Below are positions 1,881-27,017 of a stretch of 64,000 nucleotides of DNA, in pieces (within the stretch, counting starts at the first letter, position 1; the number at the start of each line of letters is the position of its first letter). The notes below the pieces were generated by a model. It worked only from the letters and a program-made list of their open reading frames with translations. It was not told where the DNA came from and did not search any database. The translations under genes and the position numbers were made by a program. Source of the DNA: Escherichia coli (lineage in GTDB: Bacteria > Pseudomonadota > Gammaproteobacteria > Enterobacterales > Enterobacteriaceae); assembly GCF_003790525.1 (NCBI RefSeq), contig NZ_CP033635.1; one strand, written 5' to 3'.

Positions 1881-2828
1881 ATGGAAAACAGTGACGATAT
1901 CCGTTTGATTGTGAAGATTGCCCAACTCTATTACGAACAGGATATGACGCAGGCGCAAATCGCGCGCGAACTGGGTATTTACCGCACCACCATCAGCCGC
2001 TTGCTTAAACGAGGCCGCGATCAGGGAATTGTCACCATCGCCATCAACTATGACTACAACGAAAATCTCTGGCTGGAGCAGCAACTGAAGCAAAAGTTTG
2101 GCCTGAAAGACGTTGTGGTGGTGTCGGGAAATGATGAGGATGAAGAGACTCAACTGGCGATGATGGGGTTACACGGCGCGCAACTGCTGGATCGCTTGCT
2201 GGAACCTGGCGATATTGTCGGTTTTTCCTGGGGCCGCGCGGTGAGCGCACTGGTTGAAAACTTGCCGCAGGCGGGGCAATCGCGGCAGTTAATTTGCGTG
2301 CCGATTATTGGCGGCCCGTCCGGTAAACTCGAAAGCCGCTATCACGTAAACACATTAACCTACAGCGCGGCAGCGAAGCTGAAAGGGGAATCGCATCTCG
2401 CGGATTTTCCGGCTCTGCTGGATAACCCATTAATTCGTAATGGGATCATGCAGTCTCAGCACTTTAAAACCATCTCTGCCTACTGGGATAATCTGGATGT
2501 CGCCCTGGTGGGAATTGGCTCACCGGCCATTCGCGACGGCGCTAACTGGCATGCGTTTTATGGTGGTGAAGAGAGTGACGACCTGAATGCCCGCCAGGTT
2601 GCTGGCGATATTTGCTCGCGCTTTTTTGATATTCACGGCGCAATGGTTGAAACGAATATGAGCGAAAAAACACTCTCTATCGAAATGAATAAATTAAAGC
2701 AGGCACGGTATTCCATTGGCATTGCCATGAGCGAAGAAAAATACAGCGGAATTGTTGGTGCACTGCGTGGAAAATATATTAATTGTCTGGTAACGAATAG
2801 CAGCACAGCTGAACTATTACTGAAATAA
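1881..2828 (+). CDS. sorC: SorC-family transcriptional regulator of the sorbose operon
   Basis: ORF track gives 1797..2828; ATG at 1881 (MENSDDIRLIVKIAQLYYEQDMTQAQIARELGIYRTTISRLL) is preceded by AGGAGG at 1869-1874. HTH plus sugar-binding domain typical of the SorC family; first gene of a sorCDFBAME-ordered cluster. Confidence 0.85.
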   Translation: MENSDDIRLIVKIAQLYYEQDMTQAQIARELGIYRTTISRLLKRGRDQGIVTIAINYDYNENLWLEQQLKQKFGLKDVVVVSGNDEDEETQLAMMGLHGAQLLDRLLEPGDIVGFSWGRAVSALVENLPQAGQSRQLICVPIIGGPSGKLESRYHVNTLTYSAAAKLKGESHLADFPALLDNPLIRNGIMQSQHFKTISAYWDNLDVALVGIGSPAIRDGANWHAFYGGEESDDLNARQVAGDICSRFFDIHGAMVETNMSEKTLSIEMNKLKQARYSIGIAMSEEKYSGIVGALRGKYINCLVTNSSTAELLLK

Positions 2829-2897
2829 AAATCTTCCCGATGTTTACCGTAATAAAAATTACGGCGGGTCCCTATTATCTAAAATCAGGAGTCTGTT

Positions 2898-3704
2898 ATG
2901 CAAACGTGGTTAAATTTGCAGGATAAAATCATTATTGTCACCGGCGGCGCATCCGGTATTGGTCTGGCGATTGTGGATGAATTATTAGCACAAGGCGCGA
3001 ATGTACAGATGGTCGATATTCACGGTGGCGATGGTCAATATGAAAACCATAAAGGTTATCAGTTCTGGCCGACCGATATTTCCAGCGCCAAAGAGGTAAA
3101 TCATACGGTAGCAGAAATTATCCAGCGTTTTGGTCGCATCGACGGTCTGGTCAATAACGCCGGGGTCAATTTCCCGCGTCTGCTGGTCGATGAGAAAGCG
3201 CCTGCCGGGCAGTATGAACTCAACGAAGCGGCATTCGAAAAAATGGTCAATATCAACCAGAAAGGCGTTTTTCTGATGTCGCAGGCGGTGGCGCGACAGA
3301 TGGTCAAACAACATGATGGCGTGATTGTGAATGTTTCCTCAGAAAGTGGGCTGGAAGGCTCAGAAGGCCAAAGCTGTTACGCCGCGACCAAAGCCGCGCT
3401 CAATAGCTTCACGCGCTCCTGGTCGAAAGAGCTGGGTAAGCACGGTATCCGTGTGGTCGGTATCGCGCCGGGGATTCTGGAAAAAACAGGACTGCGTACG
3501 CCGGAATATGAAGAAGCGCTGGCGTGGACGCGCAATATCACCGTCGAGCAGCTGCGTGAAGGCTATACCAAAAACGCCATTCCTATTGGGCGCGCCGGAA
3601 GATTAGCAGAAGTGGCTGATTTTGTTTGTTATCTGCTGTCTGAACGCGCCAGCTATATCACCGGAGTAACCACTAACATTGCGGGCGGCAAAACGCGCGG
3701 CTAA
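2898..3704 (+). CDS. sorD: Short-chain dehydrogenase/reductase, sorbitol-6-phosphate 2-dehydrogenase type
   Basis: 268 aa with the SDR glycine motif TGGASGIGLA and a YxxxK motif (YAATK); position 2 in the sor cluster. Confidence 0.8.
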   Translation: MQTWLNLQDKIIIVTGGASGIGLAIVDELLAQGANVQMVDIHGGDGQYENHKGYQFWPTDISSAKEVNHTVAEIIQRFGRIDGLVNNAGVNFPRLLVDEKAPAGQYELNEAAFEKMVNINQKGVFLMSQAVARQMVKQHDGVIVNVSSESGLEGSEGQSCYAATKAALNSFTRSWSKELGKHGIRVVGIAPGILEKTGLRTPEYEEALAWTRNITVEQLREGYTKNAIPIGRAGRLAEVADFVCYLLSERASYITGVTTNIAGGKTRG

Positions 3705-3713
3705 GGAGGCTTT

Positions 3714-4121
3714 ATGGTCAATGCCATTTTTTGCGCCCACGGCAAATTAGCCTGCGCCATGCTGGAATCGGTTCAGATGGTGTACGGCGATGCCAGGGTC
3801 GAGGCCGTTGAATTTGTGCCCGGCGAGAACGCCGGAGACATTGTGGCAAAGCTGGAGAAGTTAGTGAGCATTCACAATCATGACGAGTGGCTAATCGCCG
3901 TGGATTTACAGTGCGGCAGCCCGTGGAATGCGGCAGCGATGCTTGCGATGCGCAATCCTCGTCTGCGGGTAATCAGCGGCCTTTCTCTGCCGCTGGCGCT
4001 CGAACTGGTTGATAACCAGGACAGCATGAATATTGATGAACTGTGTGAACACCTGACGCAAATCGCAAAGCAAATCTGCGTCGTCTGGAGACAGGTGGCA
4101 ACAGCGGAGGAGGATTTCTGA
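3714..4121 (+). CDS. sorF: PTS mannose/sorbose-family EIIA component
   Basis: 135 aa with N-terminal histidine in the CAHG context typical of mannose-family EIIA; stop overlaps the sorB start (TGATG). Confidence 0.8.
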   Translation: MVNAIFCAHGKLACAMLESVQMVYGDARVEAVEFVPGENAGDIVAKLEKLVSIHNHDEWLIAVDLQCGSPWNAAAMLAMRNPRLRVISGLSLPLALELVDNQDSMNIDELCEHLTQIAKQICVVWRQVATAEEDF

Positions 4122-4615
4122 TGAACATTACGCTCGCCCGCATTGATGACCGCCTGATCCACGGCCAGGTCACTACCGTCTGGTCTAAGGTGGCTAACGC
4201 CCAACGCATTATTATCTGCAATGACGAAGTTTATAACGATGAAGTTCGCCGGACATTATTGCGTCAGGCTGCGCCACCGGGAATGAAGGTTAACGTGGTC
4301 AATATTGAAAAAGCCGTCGCGGTTTATCACAACCCGCAATATCAGGACGAAACCGTTTTTTATCTTTTCACTCGCCCACAAGATGCCTTAGCAATGGTTC
4401 GCCAGGGGGTAAAAATAGGTACCCTGAATATTGGCGGTATGGCCTGGCGTCCTGGTAAGAAACAGTTAACCAAAGCAGTTTCATTAGATGACGATGATAT
4501 TAACGCATTTCATGAGTTAAATAATCTTGGCGTCATACTGGATTTACGCGTCGTAGCGTCAGATCCCTCAATCAATATTATCGACAAAATAAACGAACAG
4601 TTAATCGCAAATTAA
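4121..4615 (+). CDS. sorB: PTS mannose/sorbose-family EIIB component
   Basis: 164 aa with the RIDDRLIHGQV motif characteristic of mannose-family EIIB. Confidence 0.85.
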   Translation: MNITLARIDDRLIHGQVTTVWSKVANAQRIIICNDEVYNDEVRRTLLRQAAPPGMKVNVVNIEKAVAVYHNPQYQDETVFYLFTRPQDALAMVRQGVKIGTLNIGGMAWRPGKKQLTKAVSLDDDDINAFHELNNLGVILDLRVVASDPSINIIDKINEQLIAN

Positions 4616-4680
4616 ATAATAGCGCCTGTGTACATATGCTTTAACAGGCAGGGATGACGACACTTAAAAGGTGACAAATC

Positions 4681-5478
4681 ATGGAAATAAGTACCCTACA
4701 AATTATTGCTATATTTCTTTTTTCCTGTATTGCCGGAATGGGCAGCGTGCTGGATGAATTTCAGACTCATCGTCCGTTAATTGCCTGTACGGTGATTGGT
4801 TTAATTCTCGGTGATTTAAAAACCGGAATTATGCTCGGTGGTACGCTGGAATTGATAGCTCTCGGCTGGATGAACGTCGGCGCGGCGCAATCTCCGGATT
4901 CTGCACTCGCCAGCATAATCTCCGCCATTCTGGTTATCGTTGGTCAGCAAAGCATCGCCACCGGAATCGCCATCGCGTTGCCTGTGGCTGCGGCAGGCCA
5001 GGTGCTGACGGTGTTTGCCCGTACCATCACAGTAGTGTTCCAGCACGCGGCGGATAAAGCAGCAGAAGAGGCGCGGTTTCGCACTCTCGATATTCTGCAT
5101 GTCTCCGCGCTTGGCGTGCAGGCGCTGCGCGTTGCTATTCCGGCACTGATTGTCTCGCTGTTCGTCAGCGCCGATATGGTGAGCAATATGCTGAGCGCCA
5201 TTCCCGAATTTGTGACCCGTGGACTGCAGATTGCTGGCGGTTTTATCGTGGTGGTCGGTTACGCCATGGTGCTTCGCATGATGGGCGTGAAATATTTGAT
5301 GCCTTTCTTTTTCCTCGGTTTCCTCGCAGGTGGCTACCTCGATCTCAGTCTGCTGGCGTTCGGTGGCGTCGGCGTGATCATGGCCCTGCTCTACATCCAG
5401 TTAAATCCACAGTGGCGTAAAGCTGAACCACATCCCCAGACCACCACTATCACCGCCCTTGACCAACTTGATGATTAA
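4681..5478 (+). CDS. sorA: PTS mannose/sorbose-family EIIC component
   Basis: 265-aa hydrophobic multi-pass membrane protein; position and size fit EIIC of the Man family. Confidence 0.8.
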   Translation: MEISTLQIIAIFLFSCIAGMGSVLDEFQTHRPLIACTVIGLILGDLKTGIMLGGTLELIALGWMNVGAAQSPDSALASIISAILVIVGQQSIATGIAIALPVAAAGQVLTVFARTITVVFQHAADKAAEEARFRTLDILHVSALGVQALRVAIPALIVSLFVSADMVSNMLSAIPEFVTRGLQIAGGFIVVVGYAMVLRMMGVKYLMPFFFLGFLAGGYLDLSLLAFGGVGVIMALLYIQLNPQWRKAEPHPQTTTITALDQLDD

Positions 5479-5488
5479 CGGAGCCATC

Positions 5489-6313
5489 ATGGAACAGAGA
5501 AAAATTACACGCAGCGATCTGGTGAGCATGTTTCTGCGCTCCAACCTGCAACAGGCATCCTTTAACTTTGAACGTATTCACGGGCTGGGTTTTTGCTACG
5601 ACATGATCCCCGCCATCAAACGACTTTACCCATTAAAAGAGGATCAGGTTGCGGCGCTCAGGCGACACCTAGTGTTCTTCAATACCACGCCAGCCGTATG
5701 TGGCCCGGTCATCGGCGTCACTGCCGCCATGGAAGAGGCGCGAGCCAACGGCGCGGAAATTGATGACGGTACCATTAACGGCATCAAAGTCGGCCTGATG
5801 GGACCGTTGGCAGGTGTTGGCGATCCACTGGTCTGGGGAACGCTGCGCCCGATTACCGCCGCGCTCGGCGCATCTCTGGCACTTTCGGGCAACATTCTCG
5901 GCCCCCTGCTGTTCTTCTTTATTTTCAATGCAGTACGTCTGGCAATGAAATGGTATGGGCTGCAACTGGGCTTTCGTAAAGGGGTGAATATCGTCAGCGA
6001 TATGGGCGGTAATTTGCTGCAAAAACTGACCGAAGGCGCGTCGATTCTCGGGCTGTTTGTAATGGGCGTACTGGTGACCAAATGGACATCGATCAACGTG
6101 CCGTTAGTGGTTTCACAAACGCCTGCCGCCGATGGTGCCACCGTCACTATGACCGTACAGAACATTCTCGACCAGCTTTGCCCTGGATTGCTGGCGCTCG
6201 GTTTGACGCTGCTGATGGTACGTCTGCTCAACAAAAAAATTAACCCGGTATGGCTGATTTTCGCCCTGTTTGGTTTAGGGATTATCGGTAATGCGCTGGG
6301 CTTCCTGTCCTGA
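5489..6313 (+). CDS. sorM: PTS mannose/sorbose-family EIID component
   Basis: ORF track starts at a TTG (5459); the ATG at 5489 (MEQRKITRSDL...) has ACGGAG 5 nt upstream. Membrane protein resembling the EIID family. Confidence 0.8.
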   Translation: MEQRKITRSDLVSMFLRSNLQQASFNFERIHGLGFCYDMIPAIKRLYPLKEDQVAALRRHLVFFNTTPAVCGPVIGVTAAMEEARANGAEIDDGTINGIKVGLMGPLAGVGDPLVWGTLRPITAALGASLALSGNILGPLLFFFIFNAVRLAMKWYGLQLGFRKGVNIVSDMGGNLLQKLTEGASILGLFVMGVLVTKWTSINVPLVVSQTPAADGATVTMTVQNILDQLCPGLLALGLTLLMVRLLNKKINPVWLIFALFGLGIIGNALGFLS

Positions 6314-6364
6314 TTCTTCGCCCCGGCACGACTGCCGGGGTCATCGCTCAACATGAGGTGGTTT

Positions 6365-7594
6365 ATGAAAACAACAGCTCTGCGTCTTTATGGCAAACGT
6401 GACCTGCGTCTGGAAACCTTTGACCTTCCTGAAATGCAGGAGGATGAAATCCTCGCGACGGTGGTCACTGACAGCCTGTGCCTCTCTTCCTGGAAAGAGG
6501 CCAATCTGGGGGAAAACCATAAAAAAGTACCCGACGATGTGGCGACCAATCCCATCATCATCGGCCACGAATTTTGCGGCGATATTCTGGCCGTGGGTAA
6601 AAAGTGGCAGCACAAATTCCAGCCGGGTCAGCGTTATGTGATTCAGGCCAACCTGCAACTCCCCGACCGCCCGGACTGCCCCGGCTACTCCTTCCCGTGG
6701 GTAGGCGGCGAAGCGACGCATGTGGTTATTCCCAACGAGGTCATGGAACAAGATTGCCTGCTGGCATACGACGGCGAAACCTATTTTGAAGGCTCGCTGG
6801 TTGAACCGCTTTCCTGCGTGATTGGCGCGTTCAACGCCAACTATCATCTTCAGGAAGGTAGTTATAACCACACGATGGGGATTCGCCCGCAAGGGCGCAC
6901 GCTGATCCTCGGCGGCACCGGACCAATGGGACTGTTGGCGATTGATTATGCGCTGCATGGACCCGTTAACCCGTCGCTGCTCGTTATTACCGATACCGAC
7001 AACGACAAATTGAGTTATGCGCGCAAGCACTATCCATCAGAACCGCAAACACTGATTCATTATCTCAATGCCACCGATGCAGCATTTGATACGTTAATGG
7101 CGCTGAGTGGCGGTCACGGCTTCGATGATATTTTCGTCTTTGTGCCTAATGAAGGACTGGTGACTCTCGCCTCTTCCTTGCTGGCGACAGATGGTTGCCT
7201 GAATTTCTTCGCCGGACCGCAGGATAAACATTTCAGCGCGCCAATTAATTTCTACGATGTGCATTATGCATTTACCCACTACGTGGGCACGTCAGGCGGC
7301 AATACCGACGACATGCGCGCGGCGGTCAAACTGATCGAAGAGAAAAAAGTGCAGGCCGCAAAAGTGGTAACACATATTCTTGGGCTGAATGCCGCGGGCG
7401 AAACCACGCTTGAATTGCCTGCCGTCGGCGGCGGGAAAAAACTGGTGTATACCGGGAAATATCTGCCGCTGACATCACTCACGCAGATTCAGGATGAAGA
7501 ACTGGCGGCGATTCTGGCGCGTCATCAGGGAGTCTGGTCCGGCGAGGCGGAGCAGTACCTGCTCGCCCATGCAGAGGCGATTTCCCATGATTAA
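6365..7594 (+). CDS. sorE: Zinc-dependent dehydrogenase, sorbose-1-phosphate reductase type
   Basis: About 409 aa; ATG at 6365 preceded by GAGG; medium-chain dehydrogenase fold (GHEFCGDI zinc-ligand region, GGTGPMG Rossmann motif); last gene of the canonical sorCDFBAME order. Confidence 0.75.
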   Translation: MKTTALRLYGKRDLRLETFDLPEMQEDEILATVVTDSLCLSSWKEANLGENHKKVPDDVATNPIIIGHEFCGDILAVGKKWQHKFQPGQRYVIQANLQLPDRPDCPGYSFPWVGGEATHVVIPNEVMEQDCLLAYDGETYFEGSLVEPLSCVIGAFNANYHLQEGSYNHTMGIRPQGRTLILGGTGPMGLLAIDYALHGPVNPSLLVITDTDNDKLSYARKHYPSEPQTLIHYLNATDAAFDTLMALSGGHGFDDIFVFVPNEGLVTLASSLLATDGCLNFFAGPQDKHFSAPINFYDVHYAFTHYVGTSGGNTDDMRAAVKLIEEKKVQAAKVVTHILGLNAAGETTLELPAVGGGKKLVYTGKYLPLTSLTQIQDEELAAILARHQGVWSGEAEQYLLAHAEAISHD

Positions 7595-8399
7595 TCGCGA
7601 TACTCAACTCTGCATGTCGCTGGCCGGCCGCCCCGGTAACTTCGGCACGCGTTTTCACAATTATCTTTATGAAAAGCTGGGGCTGAATTTCATCTATAAA
7701 GCGTTCACCACCCAGGATATTGCAGCGGCGGTGAAAGGGATTCGCGCGTTGGGTATTCGCGGTTGCGCTGTGTCGATGCCGTTTAAAGAAAGCTGCATGC
7801 CTTTTCTCGACGCGATCGATCCGTCGGCGAAGGTCATTGATTCCGTGAATACCATCGTGAATGACGACGGCAGGCTGACCGGGTTTAACACCGACTATAT
7901 CGCGGTGAAAAGCCTGATTACCCACCACCAGCTCAATACCACCACGCGAGTGATGATTCGCGGCAGTGGCGGCATGGGCAAAGCGGTGATTGCCGCCTTT
8001 CGCGACGCGGGGTTTACGGATGTTATCATTGCCGCCCGCAACCGCGAGAGCGGCCCGGCGCTGGCGAAGCAGTATGGGTTTCAGTGGCAACCGCAGCCGG
8101 AAGGCATCGCCTGCGACATTCTGGTCAACGTGACGCCCGTTGGCATGAGCGGCGGTAAAGAGAGCCATGAGCTGGCCTTCAGCGAAGCGATGGTCTCAAC
8201 GGCAAGCGTCGTTTTTGATGTCGTGGCCTTGCCGCCGGAAACGCCGCTCATTCGCCTGGCGCAACGGCTTGATAAGCAGACGATTAGCGGTGCGGAGGTG
8301 ATTGCTTTACAGGCCGTCGAGCAGTTCGCAATGTATACCGGCGTACGGCCTGATGCGCAACTGATTGCTGAGGCGGCACAATTTGCACGAGAAGGATAA
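7587..8399 (+). CDS. Shikimate/quinate dehydrogenase-family (AroE-like) oxidoreductase, translationally coupled to sorE
   Basis: ATG at 7587 overlaps the sorE stop (ATGATTAA). 270 aa with SDH-family hallmarks: the VSMPFK lysine motif, the NTDY aspartate motif and a GSGGMGKAV nucleotide-binding loop. Not part of the canonical sor operon as I remember it. Confidence 0.7.
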   Translation: MINRDTQLCMSLAGRPGNFGTRFHNYLYEKLGLNFIYKAFTTQDIAAAVKGIRALGIRGCAVSMPFKESCMPFLDAIDPSAKVIDSVNTIVNDDGRLTGFNTDYIAVKSLITHHQLNTTTRVMIRGSGGMGKAVIAAFRDAGFTDVIIAARNRESGPALAKQYGFQWQPQPEGIACDILVNVTPVGMSGGKESHELAFSEAMVSTASVVFDVVALPPETPLIRLAQRLDKQTISGAEVIALQAVEQFAMYTGVRPDAQLIAEAAQFAREG

Positions 8400-8521
8400 G
8401 AAACATCAGCGCCTTGTTTGCCACGCCAGAAGCAATGCGCAACATCGTGAGCCATGTCAGTAAGCGGTTAAAATCACAGTGGTAGCATGGCTCCCGTGAT
8501 TTCTTACTAACCGGAGAAGTA

Positions 8522-9211
8522 ATGGAACTGCTTTTATTGAGTAACTCGACGCTGCCGGGTAAAGCCTGGCTGGAACATGCGCTGCCGCTGATTGCTGAAC
8601 AGTTGCAGGGTCGCCGTTCAGCGGTATTTATTCCTTTCGCTGGCGTAACGCAGACCTGGGATGATTACACAGCGAAAACGGCTGCGGTTCTCGCTCCGCT
8701 GGGTGTTTCTGTCACCGGTATTCATAGCGTTGTCGATCCCGTTGCCGCGATTGAAAATGCTGAGATCGTGATTGTCGGCGGCGGGAATACTTTCCAGTTG
8801 CTGAAACAGTGCCGCGAGCGCGGGCTGCTGGCACCAATTACTGACGTGGTTAAACGTGGCGCGCTGTATATTGGCTGGAGCGCAGGCGCTAACCTTGCTT
8901 GCCCAACCATTCGTACCACCAACGATATGCCGATTGTCGATCCGCAAGGTTTCGATGCGCTGAATCTGTTCCCGTTGCAAATCAACCCGCACTTCACCAA
9001 CGCGCTGCCGGAAGGCCATAAAGGTGAAACGCGTGAGCAGCGTATTCGCGAACTGCTGGTCGTCGCGCCAGAACTCACAATTATTGGTCTACCGGAAGGT
9101 AACTGGATCACGGTGAGTAAAGGTCACGCTACGCTGGGTGGCCCGAACACCACTTATGTGTTTAAGGCTGGTGAAGAAGCGGTTCCGCTGGAAGCGGGTC
9201 ACCGTTTTTAA
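8522..9211 (+). CDS. pepE: Peptidase E (alpha-aspartyl dipeptidase)
   Basis: 229 aa, ATG at 8522 with a GGAGAAG ribosome-binding site; matches PepE as remembered (S51 peptidase). Confidence 0.9.
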
Positions 9212-11151: not shown

Positions 11152-14835
<3,684 letters not shown>

Positions 14836-14992
14836 ACTTGCTCCCGACACGCTCAACCCAGATTTAATAAAAATTCAACAAACCATACTGGCATAAACGC
14901 ATCTGTGGTAAAAGCGACCACCACGCAACATGAGATTTGTTCAACATTAACTCATCGGATCAGTTCAGCAACTATTGCATTAGCTAACAATA

Positions 14993-15013
14993 AAAATGAA
15001 AATGATTTCCACG
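14993..15013 (+). promoter_or_regulatory. Candidate IclR autoregulatory operator in the iclR promoter
   Basis: AAAATGAAAATGATTTCCACG contains a half-palindrome resembling the IclR box (TGGAAAT-N-ATTTCCA), 20-40 bp upstream of the iclR ATG. Confidence 0.45.
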
Positions 15014-15034
15014 ATGCAGAAAAAGGAGACTGTC

Positions 15035-15859
15035 ATGGTCGCACCCATTCCCGCGAAACGCGGCAGAAAACCCGCCGTTGCCACCGCACCAGCGACTGGA
15101 CAGGTTCAGTCTTTAACGCGTGGCCTGAAATTACTGGAGTGGATTGCCGAATCCAATGGCAGTGTGGCACTCACGGAGCTGGCGCAACAAGCCGGGTTAC
15201 CCAATTCCACGACCCACCGCCTGCTAACCACGATGCAACAGCAGGGTTTCGTGCGTCAGGTTGGCGAACTGGGACACTGGGCAATCGGCGCACATGCCTT
15301 TATGGTCGGCAGCAGCTTTCTCCAGAGCCGTAATTTGTTAGCAATTGTTCACCCTATCCTGCGCAATCTAATGGAAGAGTCTGGCGAAACGGTCAATATG
15401 GCGGTGCTTGATCAAAGCGATCATGAAGCGATTATTATCGACCAGGTACAGTGTACCCACCTGATGCGAATGTCCGCGCCTATCGGCGGTAAATTACCTA
15501 TGCACGCTTCCGGTGCGGGTAAAGCCTTTTTAGCCCAACTGAGCGAAGAACAGGTGACGAAGCTGCTGCACCGCAAAGGGTTACATGCCTATACCCACGC
15601 AACGCTAGTGTCTCCTGTGCATTTAAAAGAAGATCTCGCCCAAACGCGCAAACGGGGTTATTCATTTGACGATGAGGAACATGCGCTGGGGCTACGTTGC
15701 CTTGCAGCGTGTATTTTCGATGAGCACCGTGAACCGTTTGCCGCAATTTCTATTTCCGGACCGATTTCACGTATTACCGATGACCGCGTGACCGAGTTTG
15801 GCGCGATGGTGATTAAAGCGGCGAAGGAAGTGACGCTGGCGTACGGTGGAATGCGCTGA
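15035..15859 (+). CDS. iclR: Glyoxylate-shunt repressor IclR
   Basis: 274 aa from the ATG at 15035 (AAGGAG at 15024-15029); MVAPIPAKRGRKPAVATAPATGQVQSLTRGLKLLEWIAES... matches IclR. Confidence 0.95.
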   Translation: MVAPIPAKRGRKPAVATAPATGQVQSLTRGLKLLEWIAESNGSVALTELAQQAGLPNSTTHRLLTTMQQQGFVRQVGELGHWAIGAHAFMVGSSFLQSRNLLAIVHPILRNLMEESGETVNMAVLDQSDHEAIIIDQVQCTHLMRMSAPIGGKLPMHASGAGKAFLAQLSEEQVTKLLHRKGLHAYTHATLVSPVHLKEDLAQTRKRGYSFDDEEHALGLRCLAACIFDEHREPFAAISISGPISRITDDRVTEFGAMVIKAAKEVTLAYGGMR

Positions 15860-15875
15860 CTTTTTCGCCTCTGAT

Positions 15876-17600
<1,725 letters not shown>

Positions 17601-17628
17601 TTAGCGCCCTCATCAGGAGCAGAGAATT

Positions 17629-17761
17629 GCCGGATGCGGCGTAAACGCCTTATCCAGCCTACGTTCGGCAACGGTTGTAGGCATGATAAGACGCGCAAGC
17701 GTCGCATCAGGCATCGTGCACCGATTGCCGGATGCGGCGTAAATGCCTTATCCGGCCTACA
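17629..17761. repeat. BIME: three REP elements in alternating orientation between aceA and aceK
   Basis: GCCGGATGCGGCGTAAACGCCTTATCCAGCCTAC (17629-17662), an inverted copy at about 17677-17715, and GCCGGATGCGGCGTAAATGCCTTATCCGGCCTACA (17727-17761); this is the well-known aceA-aceK intercistronic REP cluster. Confidence 0.85.
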
Positions 17762-17783
17762 GTCAGCAACGTTTGTAGGTTGC

Positions 17784-19088
17784 TTAGAACTGCGATTCTT
17801 CAGTGGAGCCAGTCAGTGCGGTAACCGACGACGTGCCGCCCTGAATAATGGTCGTCACTTTATCGAAGTAACCTGTACCCACTTCCTGCTGGTGAGATAC
17901 GAAGGTATAGCCATCTTTCGCGGCGGCAAATTCCGGCTGCTGCACTTTCTCAACATAGTGCTTCATACCCTCGCCCTGGGCATAGGCGTTTGCCAGGTCA
18001 AACATGTTGAACCACATGCTGTGGATACCTGCCAGGGTGATGAACTGGAACTTGTAGCCCATATCCGACAGCTGCTGCTGGAAGCTGGCAATAGTTTTGT
18101 CGTCGAGGTTTTTCTGCCAGTTGAACGAAGGCGAGCAGTTATAAGCCAGCAGTTTGCCCGGATATTTCGCGTGGATGGCTTGTGCAAAGCGACGCGCCAG
18201 TTCCAGATCCGGCGTGGAGGTTTCACACCATACCAGGTCAGCATATGGCGCATACGCCAGGCCACGGCTGATCGCTTGTTCAATACCTGCATGAGTACGG
18301 AAGAAGCCTTCACTGGTACGCTCGCCGGTAATAAATTCGCTGTCATACGGGTCGCAATCGGAGGTAATCAGATCCGCCGCATCAGCATCGGTACGGGCAA
18401 CCAGAAGGGTTGGAACGCCCGTCACGTCAGCTGCCAGACGCGCCGCGACCAGTTTCTGAATAGCTTCCTGAGTTGGCACTAAAACTTTGCCGCCCATGTG
18501 ACCGCATTTCTTCACTGATGCCAGCTGATCTTCGAAGTGAACTGCCGCTGCACCGGCTTCAATCATCGCTTTCATCAGTTCAAAGGCATTCAGGACACCG
18601 CCAAAACCGGCTTCCGCATCAGCAACGATCGGCAGGAAGTAATCGACATAGCGCGGATCGCCCGGCTCAATGCCCGCGGACCATTGGATCTGATCCGCAC
18701 GGCGGAAGGTGTTGTTGATCCGCTCCACCACAGCTGGCACCGAGTTTGCCGGATAGAGCGACTGATCCGGATACATGCTGGCCGCCAGGTTAGCGTCCGC
18801 CGCTACCTGCCATCCCGACAGATAGACCGCTTCAATACCCGCTTTCGCCTGTTGCAGCGCCTGACCGCCAGTCAGTGCACCGAGGCTGTTGATGTAGCCT
18901 TTTTTCGACTCGCCGTGCAGCAGACGCCACATTTTCGCCGCGCCCAGTTGCGCCAGCGTGCATTCAGGATTGACTGAACCGCGTAATTTCACCACATCTT
19001 CCGCGCTGTATGGCCGAGTAATGCCTTCCCAACGCGGTTGAGTCCACTCTTTCTGTAATTCTTCAATTTGTTGTGTACGGGTTTTCAT
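17784..19088 (-). CDS. aceA: Isocitrate lyase
   Basis: 434 aa from the ATG at 19088 (ORF track starts 5 codons upstream); [33 protein letters not shown]... matches AceA. Confidence 0.95.
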
Positions 19089-19117
19089 GTGCAGATGCTC
19101 CATAGTTATGTGGTGGT

Positions 19118-20719
19118 TTACGCTAACAGGCGGTAGCCTGGCAGGGTCAGGAAATCAATTAACTCATCGGAAGTGGTGATCTGTTCCATCAAACGTGCGG
19201 CATCGTCAAAACGCCCCTGGGAGAAACGTTCTTCGCCCAGTTCGCTGGCAATGACTTTCATCTCTTCGCCCAGCATCTGGCGGAACAAGGCTTTGGTCAC
19301 CGGTTTGCCATTGCTCAACGTTTTTTGATGATGGATCCACTGCCAGATTGAGGTACGGGAAATTTCAGCCGTCGCCGCATCTTCCATCAGGCCATAAATC
19401 GGCACGCAGCCGTTGCCGGAGATCCATGCTTCGATGTACTGCACAGCCACGCGAATGTTGGCGCGCATACCTTCTTCGGTGCGTTCACCATCACAAGGTG
19501 CCAGCAGCTGATCGGCAGTAATCGGCGCGTCTTGTTCGCGCATCACTTCAAGCTGATTTTTACGGGAGCCGAGAATGTCGTTGAATACCGCCATTGCCGT
19601 ATCCGCAAGACCTGGGTGAGCGATCCATGTGCCATCGTGACCGTTATTGGCTTCCAGCGATTTATCCGCTTTTACTTTGTTGAGCACCTGGTTATTGCGC
19701 TCTTCATCTTTGCTCGGAATAAACGCCGCCATGCCGCCCATCGCAAATGCGCCGCGTTTATGGCAGGTTTTAATCAACAGGCGTGAGTAAGCATTCAGGA
19801 AGGGTTTATCCATCGTCACTGCCTGTCTATCTGGCAGGACGCGATCGGGATAGTTTTTCAACGTTTTGATATAACTGAAGATGTAATCCCAACGACCGCA
19901 GTTCAGACCAACAATATGGTCACGCAGCGCGTGAAGGATTTCGTCCATCTGGAACACGGCGGGCAGCGTTTCAATCAGCAACGTCGCCTTGATGGTGCCG
20001 CGCGGCAGATTAAAGCGATCTTCTGCATAGCTGAAGACTTCGCTCCACCAGGCCGCTTCCTGCCAGGACTGGGTTTTCGGCAGATAGAAATAGGGACCGC
20101 TGCCTTTTGCTAACAGAGCCTGGTAGTTGTGGAAGAAATAGAGCGCAAAATCAAACAGGCTGCCAGGAATTGCTTCGCCGCGCCAGGTGACATGTTTTTC
20201 CGGCAAGTGCAGACCGCGAACCCGACAAATCAACACCGCTGGATTGGGCTTGAGCTGATAAATTTTGCCTGCTTCATTGGTATAGCTGATGGTGCCGTTA
20301 ACCGCATCGCGCAGGTTAATTTGCCCGTCGATCACTTTGTTCCAGTCCGGGGCCAGTGAATCTTCGAAATCGGCCATAAAGACTTTCACATTGGCGTTGA
20401 GCGCGTTGATCACCATCTTGCGCTCAACCGGGCCAGTTATCTCGACTCGACGATCTTGTAAGTCCGCGGGAATACCACGAATTTTCCAGTCAGCATCACG
20501 AATGGAAGCTGTTTCCGAAATAAAATCAGGCAACGTTCCGTTATCGATATCCTGCTGCTGCTGAATGCGCGCTGCCAGAAGTTTATTGCGTTGTGGCGTA
20601 AAATGCGTCACCAGCTCAGTCAGAAATTCTACCGCTTCGGCAGTAAGAATTTGCTTCTCCTGCTCGCCATACGGCCTTATGAAAGCCAGTTCATCGGTTG
20701 TTGTTGCCTGTTCAGTCAT
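19118..20719 (-). CDS. aceB: Malate synthase A
   Basis: 533 aa from the ATG at 20719 (cat at 20717-20719 on + strand); [13 protein letters not shown]... matches AceB. Confidence 0.95.
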
Positions 20720-20809
20720 CGTGCAGCTCCTCGTCATGGATCCGAAAACTTCCCCACTGTGAACGAAGGATCGTTGTGCGCTTTTCGTTCAGCACAACTA
20801 AGACTACTC

Positions 20810-21963: not shown

Positions 21964-22355
21964 TAGCTGAAGATAACCAGAAAATTTGCCAATGTCGAGT
22001 CTGCATGTTGAAGGTGAGAAAGTTTCAAGGAAAAGGCTACGTTAGAATATAAGAATGACGAAAAGGAGAGAAAATGGTTATTAGTATTCGCTGCTCACGG
22101 CATGAGGAAGGGGAGGAACTCGTTGCGATTTGGTGTCGTTCTGTCGATGCCACTCACGATTTTTTATCAGCAGAGTATCGGGCCGAGCTGGAGGAGCTAG
22201 TTCGTTCCTTCCTGCCGGAAGCGCCGTTGTGGGTCGCGGTTAATGAGCGGGATCGGCCGGTTGGGTTTATGTTGTTAAGTGGGCAGCATATGGATGCGCT
22301 GTTTATCGATCCTGATGTGCGCGGCTGCGGCGTGGGTCGGATGCTGGTGTAGTGG

Positions 22356-23605
<1,250 letters not shown>

Positions 23606-23860
23606 TGGTGAAGCATGCGCTCTCAATGGCCCCGGAACTGACAACCAATGTTAATGAGCAAAATGAGCAGGCGGTTGGGTTCTATAAGAAGGTGGGTTTT
23701 AAGGTTACGGGACGCTCTGAGGTGGACGATTTGGGGAAACCGTATCCATTGCTGAATCTGGCATATGTGGGGGAATAAGCTGCCCCCTATCGTGCTATCG
23801 TGCCTGCGTAAGCTGGAGCAGACGCGCCAGCGTCGCATCCGGCATTTTTTCTGCGCCAAT

Positions 23861-23890
23861 GCAAAAAGGCCATCCTGACGGATGGCCTTT
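23861..23890 (-). terminator. rrnE operon intrinsic terminator
   Basis: On the minus strand, an AAGGCCAUC...GAUGGCCUU hairpin followed by U5, immediately 3' of the 5S rRNA. Confidence 0.75.
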
Positions 23891-23901
23891 CGCTTAATTT
23901 G

Positions 23902-24112: not shown

Positions 24113-27017
<2,905 letters not shown>

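Follow-up and report, generated by a model that had tools for sequence, protein, structure and literature searches.

An arpA-free iclR–aceK junction in an Escherichia coli strain closely related to SMS-3-5: probably an ancestral empty site

The absence of arpA between aceK and iclR is a well-known signature of Escherichia coli phylogroups B2, F, and G. In the stretch of E. coli DNA analyzed here (64,000 nucleotides, called the window throughout) iclR and aceK lie side by side with nothing but a short spacer between them. This arrangement raises two questions: what does the junction say about the background of the strain, and was arpA deleted from this position or did it never arrive there?

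Anatomy of the junction and comparison with K-12

The features that make up the junction and its surroundings are listed below (window coordinates, strand, description, and, in brackets, the basis of the assignment).

15035–15859, plus strand: iclR, glyoxylate bypass operon repressor, 274 aa, stop codon TGA at 15857–15859 (SMS-3-5 RefSeq annotation, NCBIfam, translation)
15876–17600, minus strand: aceK, isocitrate dehydrogenase kinase/phosphatase, 574 aa (translation, NCBIfam, SMS-3-5 RefSeq annotation)
15860–15875, no strand: 16-bp spacer CTTTTTCGCCTCTGAT with the convergent iclR and aceK stops on either side (sequence, annotation, position of arpA in K-12)
15867–15888, no strand: 22 bp GCCTCTGATTTATACGAATCGA without a K-12 counterpart, allelic alternative to the 2,489-bp arpA segment (blastn breakpoints)
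17784–20737, minus strand: aceA and aceB, the aceBAK operon genes upstream of aceK (ORFs and RefSeq annotation)
11152–14835, minus strand: metH, divergent neighbor of iclR (RefSeq annotation, ORF)

For the aceA/aceB range the upper end marks how far the raw ORF reaches upstream, and the RefSeq coordinates place aceA at 17784–19088 and aceB at 19118–20719. The ORF listing gave 14996–15859 on the plus strand and 15876–17600 on the minus strand; the RefSeq start of iclR is 15035. Between 15820 and 15880 the letters read ...aatgcgcTGA ctttttcgcctctgat TTA tacgaa..., where ctttttcgcctctgat represents the 16 bp from 15860 to 15875 and the TTA at 15876–15878 is the complement of the aceK stop codon TAA. 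The spacer is too short and thus, no ORF fits into it. A preliminary description of this DNA had placed the iclR stop at 15859 and the aceK stop at 15876–15878, with 16 bp and no ORF between them, and these coordinates proved to be exact in both the sequence and the ORF listing. Both flanking proteins scored above the corresponding NCBIfam equivalog cut-offs (AceK: NF002804, 939 bits, cut-off 488; IclR: NF008601, 569.5 bits, cut-off 380). The RefSeq record of the near-identical strain SMS-3-5 also shows 16 bp from iclR to aceK and no feature in between. When K-12 ArpA was used as tblastn query, its sequence was not found in the 64-kb window (best E-value 0.098), and no ShET2/ankyrin sequence of the ArpA type was present within the window. 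The short spacer, the SMS-3-5 annotation, and this null result together bear out the earlier claim that arpA is absent.

In K-12 MG1655 (locus L002) the order is aceK (stop at 6333), arpA (6302–8488, 728 aa), and iclR (stop at 8805). Here arpA comprises 2,187 bp, is located on the strand opposite to aceK, and overlaps aceK by 32 bp. The MG1655 annotation and Pfam agree with the statement in the preliminary description that K-12 carries an ankyrin-repeat gene of about 2.2 kb at this place. Comparison with MG1655, which had been proposed as a check, gave a stop-to-stop distance between aceK and iclR of 2,471 bp in K-12 versus 16 bp in the window, so that the short junction is not shared by K-12. 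Inspection of the blastn alignments indicated that homology ends at window position 15889 (L002 6308) on the aceK side and at 15866 (L002 8798) on the iclR side. The two alleles are therefore related by replacement rather than by a clean indel: 22 bp in the window (15867–15888) stand against 2,489 bp in K-12, and the K-12 segment consists of arpA plus an AT-rich spacer of 316 bp. GCCTCTGATTTATACGAATCGA is made up of the final 9 bp of the spacer, the stop codon of aceK, and the 10 coding bases at the 3' end of aceK, which are the codons for R-F-V and one base of the preceding codon. Since the K-12 segment extends into the end of aceK and supplies its last codons, the C-termini of the two AceK proteins differ (...RFSVRFV*, 574 aa, in the window vs. 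...RFSVRYGEMLF*, 578 aa, in K-12).

Strain background and Clermont markers

The window corresponds to the reverse complement of positions 4517566–4581565 of NC_010498.1 (E. coli SMS-3-5), with 6 mismatches in 64,000 bases. These are located at window positions 25791, 25800, 25809, 26528, 26737, and 43586; five of them fall into a 23S rRNA gene and one into thiF. The clustered 23S rRNA differences may stem from the assembly or from variation among the rRNA operons. Given these six differences, the window may come from a sister isolate of SMS-3-5 or from another assembly. When a 24-kb part of the window was compared, at least 11 other genomes tied with SMS-3-5 (identical bit score, 100.0% identity). 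SMS-3-5 serves as phylogroup F reference (PMC10100065). It was originally reported as D but has been typed as F by phylogeny, ClermonTyping, and EzClermont, and its published typing is arpA-negative/F (PMC7656184).

For in silico Clermont typing we used the published primers (PMC4322292, Table 1) and searched for them at up to 3 mismatches. The arpA assay of the quadruplex employs the primers AceK.f and ArpA1.r and yields a 400-bp product (PMC4322292, Table 1). Two features of the window are relevant for this typing.

16255–16274, minus strand: AceK.f primer site (perfect match)
23774–23894, no strand: yjaA-empty site, 121 bp between the 5S rRNA gene and the yjaB remnant (blastn of K-12 4212800–4214400, annotations)

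No ArpA1.r site was found in the window at up to 3 mismatches and thus, no 400-bp arpA amplicon is expected. In the K-12 positive control AceK.f matched L002 5923–5942 and ArpA1.r matched 6303–6322, which gives exactly 400 bp. The in silico arpA test suggested in the preliminary description is therefore negative for the window, with a control that behaves as it should. ArpA1.r straddles the breakpoint at which homology ends (L002 6308): its 3'-terminal 6 nt are shared with arpA-negative strains and the remaining 14 nt are K-12-specific. Because ArpA1.r sits on the breakpoint, the arpA PCR reads the junction and not the body of arpA, and its amplicon consists almost wholly of aceK.

The absence of yjaA constitutes a second negative Clermont marker within the same window. 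In K-12, 518 bp including yjaA separate rrfE and yjaB, versus 121 bp in the window, and neither of the two yjaA primers had a site in the window when up to 3 mismatches were allowed. The chuA gene lies outside the window; the SMS-3-5 record annotates it and has perfect sites for both of its primers, which span 288 bp (L090 24435–24722). Taken together, the Clermont markers read arpA-negative and yjaA-negative in the window and chuA-positive in the SMS-3-5 record. [quoted passage not shown]

Two other regions of the window attracted our attention. The yjaB gene (GNAT acetyltransferase, 22074–23778) is split by an IS3-family element with its transposase coding sequence at 22356–23533, and RefSeq annotates the yjaB pieces as pseudogene fragments. 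Between pepE and rluF (1881–8399) there is a sorbose-type PTS operon with sorE, four PTS subunit genes (IIA–IID), an SDR oxidoreductase, a shikimate 5-dehydrogenase-like gene, and a regulator; in K-12, pepE and rluF are presumably adjacent.

Two doubts about this picture have to be weighed. The contiguous junction might be a sequencing or assembly artefact, a collapsed region that conceals arpA. However, the same contiguous junction is present in 1,308 independently finished genomes, and the iclR and aceK ORFs on both sides are intact and of full length, so that we attach practically no weight to this possibility. Alternatively, the strain might belong to another arpA-negative background, such as B2, G, or a cryptic clade; in the 2019 extension of the Clermont scheme phylogroup G is reportedly arpA-negative too. 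The window alone shows just the arpA-negative and yjaA-negative states, and a −,+,−,+ profile would mean B2 or G. On the other hand, only 6 of 64,000 positions separate the window from SMS-3-5, whereas B2 strains are about 97% identical to the window across the junction and cryptic-clade loci just 91–94%. Moreover, SMS-3-5 was assigned to F by phylogeny and by two in silico tools (PMC7656184) and is used as F reference (PMC10100065). A background other than phylogroup F is thus very improbable. The expectation that the junction informs on the strain background was correct: the arpA assay is negative in silico and the window is near-identical to a phylogroup F reference.

The junction of the window is an established phylotyping marker, already known and of textbook character, in a reference-like strain. 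Its value is that of a strain identifier only, in which the arpA-negative state and the missing yjaA give the background and the near-identity with SMS-3-5 gives the phylogroup. What the present analysis adds are tidy clarifications and not discoveries, namely the probably ancestral nature of the empty site, the equivalence of arpA and espL4, the rewritten AceK tail, and the fact that the arpA PCR assays the junction.

Distribution of the two alleles and direction of change

Among 5,426 complete E. coli genomes the contiguous junction was found in 1,308, with one alignment over at least 80% of a 621-bp query centered on the spacer as criterion, and the arpA segment in 4,114. Both alleles together account for 5,422 of the 5,426 genomes, and these numbers suggest that the contiguous-junction and the arpA-carrying classes barely overlap. 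In the B2 strain BH100N the 16-bp spacing and the spacer itself are identical to those of the window. In a spread sample of K-12-like, O157:H7, and other strains the arpA segment aligned from its first to its last base with 97–100% identity. The same boundaries as in K-12 were also found in a divergent lineage (L087, NZ_OZ197100.1), and the equal boundaries in K-12, in the spread sample, and in L087 point to a single origin of the segment. About half of the arpA-positive genomes carry a shorter arpA/espL4, for which two separate alignments cover 75% of the K-12 segment; the encoded proteins (524–545 aa) are annotated as ShET2/EspL2 family (E. coli matches H50–H69), and in match H50 an ISKpn26-type IS5 is located within arpA/espL4.

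The K-12 segment has a GC content of 37.0%, versus 52.8–55.8% for aceK, iclR, metH, and aceA. Pfam identified in K-12 ArpA the ShET2 N-terminal region (PF07906, Toxin_15, E-value 1.3e-96) and ankyrin repeats (Ank_2, E-value 2.2e-07), and ankyrin matches were also obtained among the solved structures of the PDB; no NCBIfam model matched ArpA. RefSeq names the gene espL4 and its product "type III secretion system effector EspL4" or a "ShET2/EspL2 family" protein. That arpA and espL4 are the same gene has apparently received little notice: one study says that among the quadruplex genes chuA alone is contained in its virulence-factor table, in which espL4 is nevertheless listed (PMC9973021). Our literature search retrieved no paper that treats arpA together with ankyrin, iclR, and aceK. 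A search for ArpA homologues gave no donor lineage and returned only clusters that were labelled E. coli or unnamed. When terminal direct or inverted repeats and a target-site duplication were sought at the boundaries of the K-12 segment, we obtained short matches at chance level and none at 6309/8797.

For the direction of change we considered outgroup loci. An IclR scan of species-representative genomes yielded 80 loci, of which 79 hold both iclR and aceK and none carries the name E. albertii, E. fergusonii, E. marmotae, or E. ruysiae. An ArpA homologue was present at the iclR–aceK junction in none of these 79 loci (4 from non-coli Escherichia and 75 from other Enterobacteriaceae). The four non-coli Escherichia loci (L003–L006, including E. 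whittamii) share 90.9–93.9% DNA identity with the window. Their spacer is likewise 16 bp long (CATTTCCGCCTCTGAT and close variants) and differs from that of the window at 2–4 positions, and their AceK tail (...RFSVRFV*) is identical to that of the window. One of them (L003, NZ_JAATUR010000012.1) is labelled Escherichia coli SCPM-O-B-8794; over metH–iclR–aceK it is only 90.9–92.4% identical to the window, a value more in line with a cryptic clade or a different Escherichia species than with E. coli.

Two genomes show a more complex history. In NZ_CP137696.1 (L086) an IS1 has taken the place of arpA. The end of its aceK is of the K-12 type, the AceK tail is new (...SVRYGGDAANLLI*), and 94 bp from the iclR end of the K-12-specific segment are kept. 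Judged from this arrangement, NZ_CP137696.1 represents a genuine secondary loss of arpA. A comparable case has been published for IAI42, in which an IS1 insertion disturbs the arpA assay and the K-12-type junction sequence as well as part of the segment next to iclR are retained (PMC6113867). The second genome is L087, an environmental isolate labelled E. coli and possibly a member of cryptic clade I, with flanks that are 91.6–95% identical to the window; its espL4/arpA is frameshifted and 97.3% identical to that of K-12. The comparison of flank and arpA identities suggests transfer of the arpA segment between lineages, and the presence of arpA in L087 would imply either recombination or a particular placement of the root in arpA history.

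These data bear on the possibility that the ancestor of the window's lineage possessed arpA and that a later deletion removed it; the 16-bp junction would then be a deletion scar. Such a scenario might appear attractive since arpA is found in the majority of the complete E. coli genomes (4,114 of 5,426), the divergent lineage L087 has it as well, and secondary losses such as that in NZ_CP137696.1 do exist. However, the one genuine loss examined retains the K-12-type junction and an IS1, and the four non-coli Escherichia lineages have equal 16-bp spacing, a near-identical spacer, and the AceK tail SVRFV*. In addition, arpA was found at the junction in no other Enterobacteriaceae locus examined, and the arpA segment has 37% GC amid a neighborhood of 53–56%. 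Finally, a deletion in B2, F, or G could not recreate the 22 bp that are missing from K-12 and thus, the empty site is most simply regarded as ancestral and arpA as a later insertion. We consider the deletion scenario largely refuted already and its truth improbable. From the outgroup states and the GC content of the segment we infer that the empty site is probably ancestral and that arpA was inserted later, so that arpA was most likely never inserted in the window rather than deleted from it.

On the basis of these findings the following course of events can be proposed. The arpA-free junction would be the ancestral Escherichia arrangement. On the branch from which phylogroups A, B1, C, D, and E descend, a foreign AT-rich segment of 2,489 bp would have replaced 22 bp and would have brought in arpA/espL4, which encodes an effector-like protein of the ShET2/EspL2 family with ankyrin repeats; the end of the segment that overlaps aceK would have rewritten the last aceK codons. 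In the lineage of the window this insertion would never have occurred, which would account for the arpA-negative Clermont score and for an AceK that ends with ...SVRFV. As a whole, the explanation that the window carries the ancestral arpA-free allele in a phylogroup F strain of the SMS-3-5 lineage, with the arpA segment as a later insertion in other lineages, appears highly probable to us.

Transcript ends, AceK tail, and relation to known systems

A consensus scan for a bidirectional terminator at the junction gave only a weak hairpin of 7 pairs (15837–15858), and the RNA folds of both junction strands were not better than those of shuffled sequences (z-scores of −1.05 and −1.74). An Rfam scan of 14800–18000 gave no match at the junction. 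In the aceA–aceK spacer (17622–17757) there is a REP-derived naRNA4 (RF02564, 81.8 bits, minus strand, 17680–17757) together with a weaker partial copy. The two convergent genes thus have no convincing intrinsic terminator between them, and transcription of aceBAK and of iclR probably stops within the opposite gene or via Rho.

Across Enterobacteriaceae the AceK residues beyond RFSVR[FY] form a hypervariable tail, which often reads into REP-like palindromes. This variability suggests that the tail is not functionally critical. The strain of the window lacks ArpA/EspL4 and has an AceK with what is probably the ancestral tail; its junction is an allele and not a device, and we infer that the lack of ArpA would be its only functional consequence. 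A more far-reaching idea would be that the arpA/espL4 insertion, apart from the AceK tail, also altered termination or collision of the aceBAK and iclR transcripts and thereby led to a lineage-specific difference in the control of the glyoxylate shunt. This idea comes from the observation that in the window the stops are 16 bp apart without a recognizable intrinsic terminator, and that iclR is pushed 2.5 kb away in K-12. If it were true, one would expect arpA-negative lineages (B2, F, G) to deviate from arpA-positive ones in their AceK tails and in the termination or collision of convergent transcripts, but we regard it as a very unlikely proposal.

In Enterobacteriaceae the iclR–aceK junction is a hot spot of variation. 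For loci L003–L082 the distance between the two stops varies from −47 to 2,714 bp (median 77), and these junctions contain REP/BIME-like palindromes into which the AceK ORF often reads. An ORF of 137 aa (MSDLKSYWQDKYP...) is present at the junction in Klebsiella, Raoultella, Kluyvera, and S. diarizonae. Toxin–antitoxin-like ORF pairs occur in L022, L026, and L031, and a three-gene cluster of membrane/phospholipid-like proteins in L040, L054, L061, and L079. The labels of all these ORFs were given by reading their translations.

The closest known systems include SMS-3-5 (NC_010498.1), which matches the window with 100% identity over 621 bp at the junction and has equal gene order and annotation. 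With K-12 MG1655 the window shares homologous flanks (96.7% identity on the aceK side, 98.6% on the iclR side) and the operon context, but the K-12 AceK is 4 aa longer with another tail and arpA overlaps aceK. In NZ_CP137696.1 the arpA assay is disturbed as well, but its K-12-type junction sequence, the IS1, and the segment remnant are all missing from the window. The arpA marker of the Clermont quadruplex addresses the very same locus, and the window gives the negative result that this scheme assigns to B2 and F.
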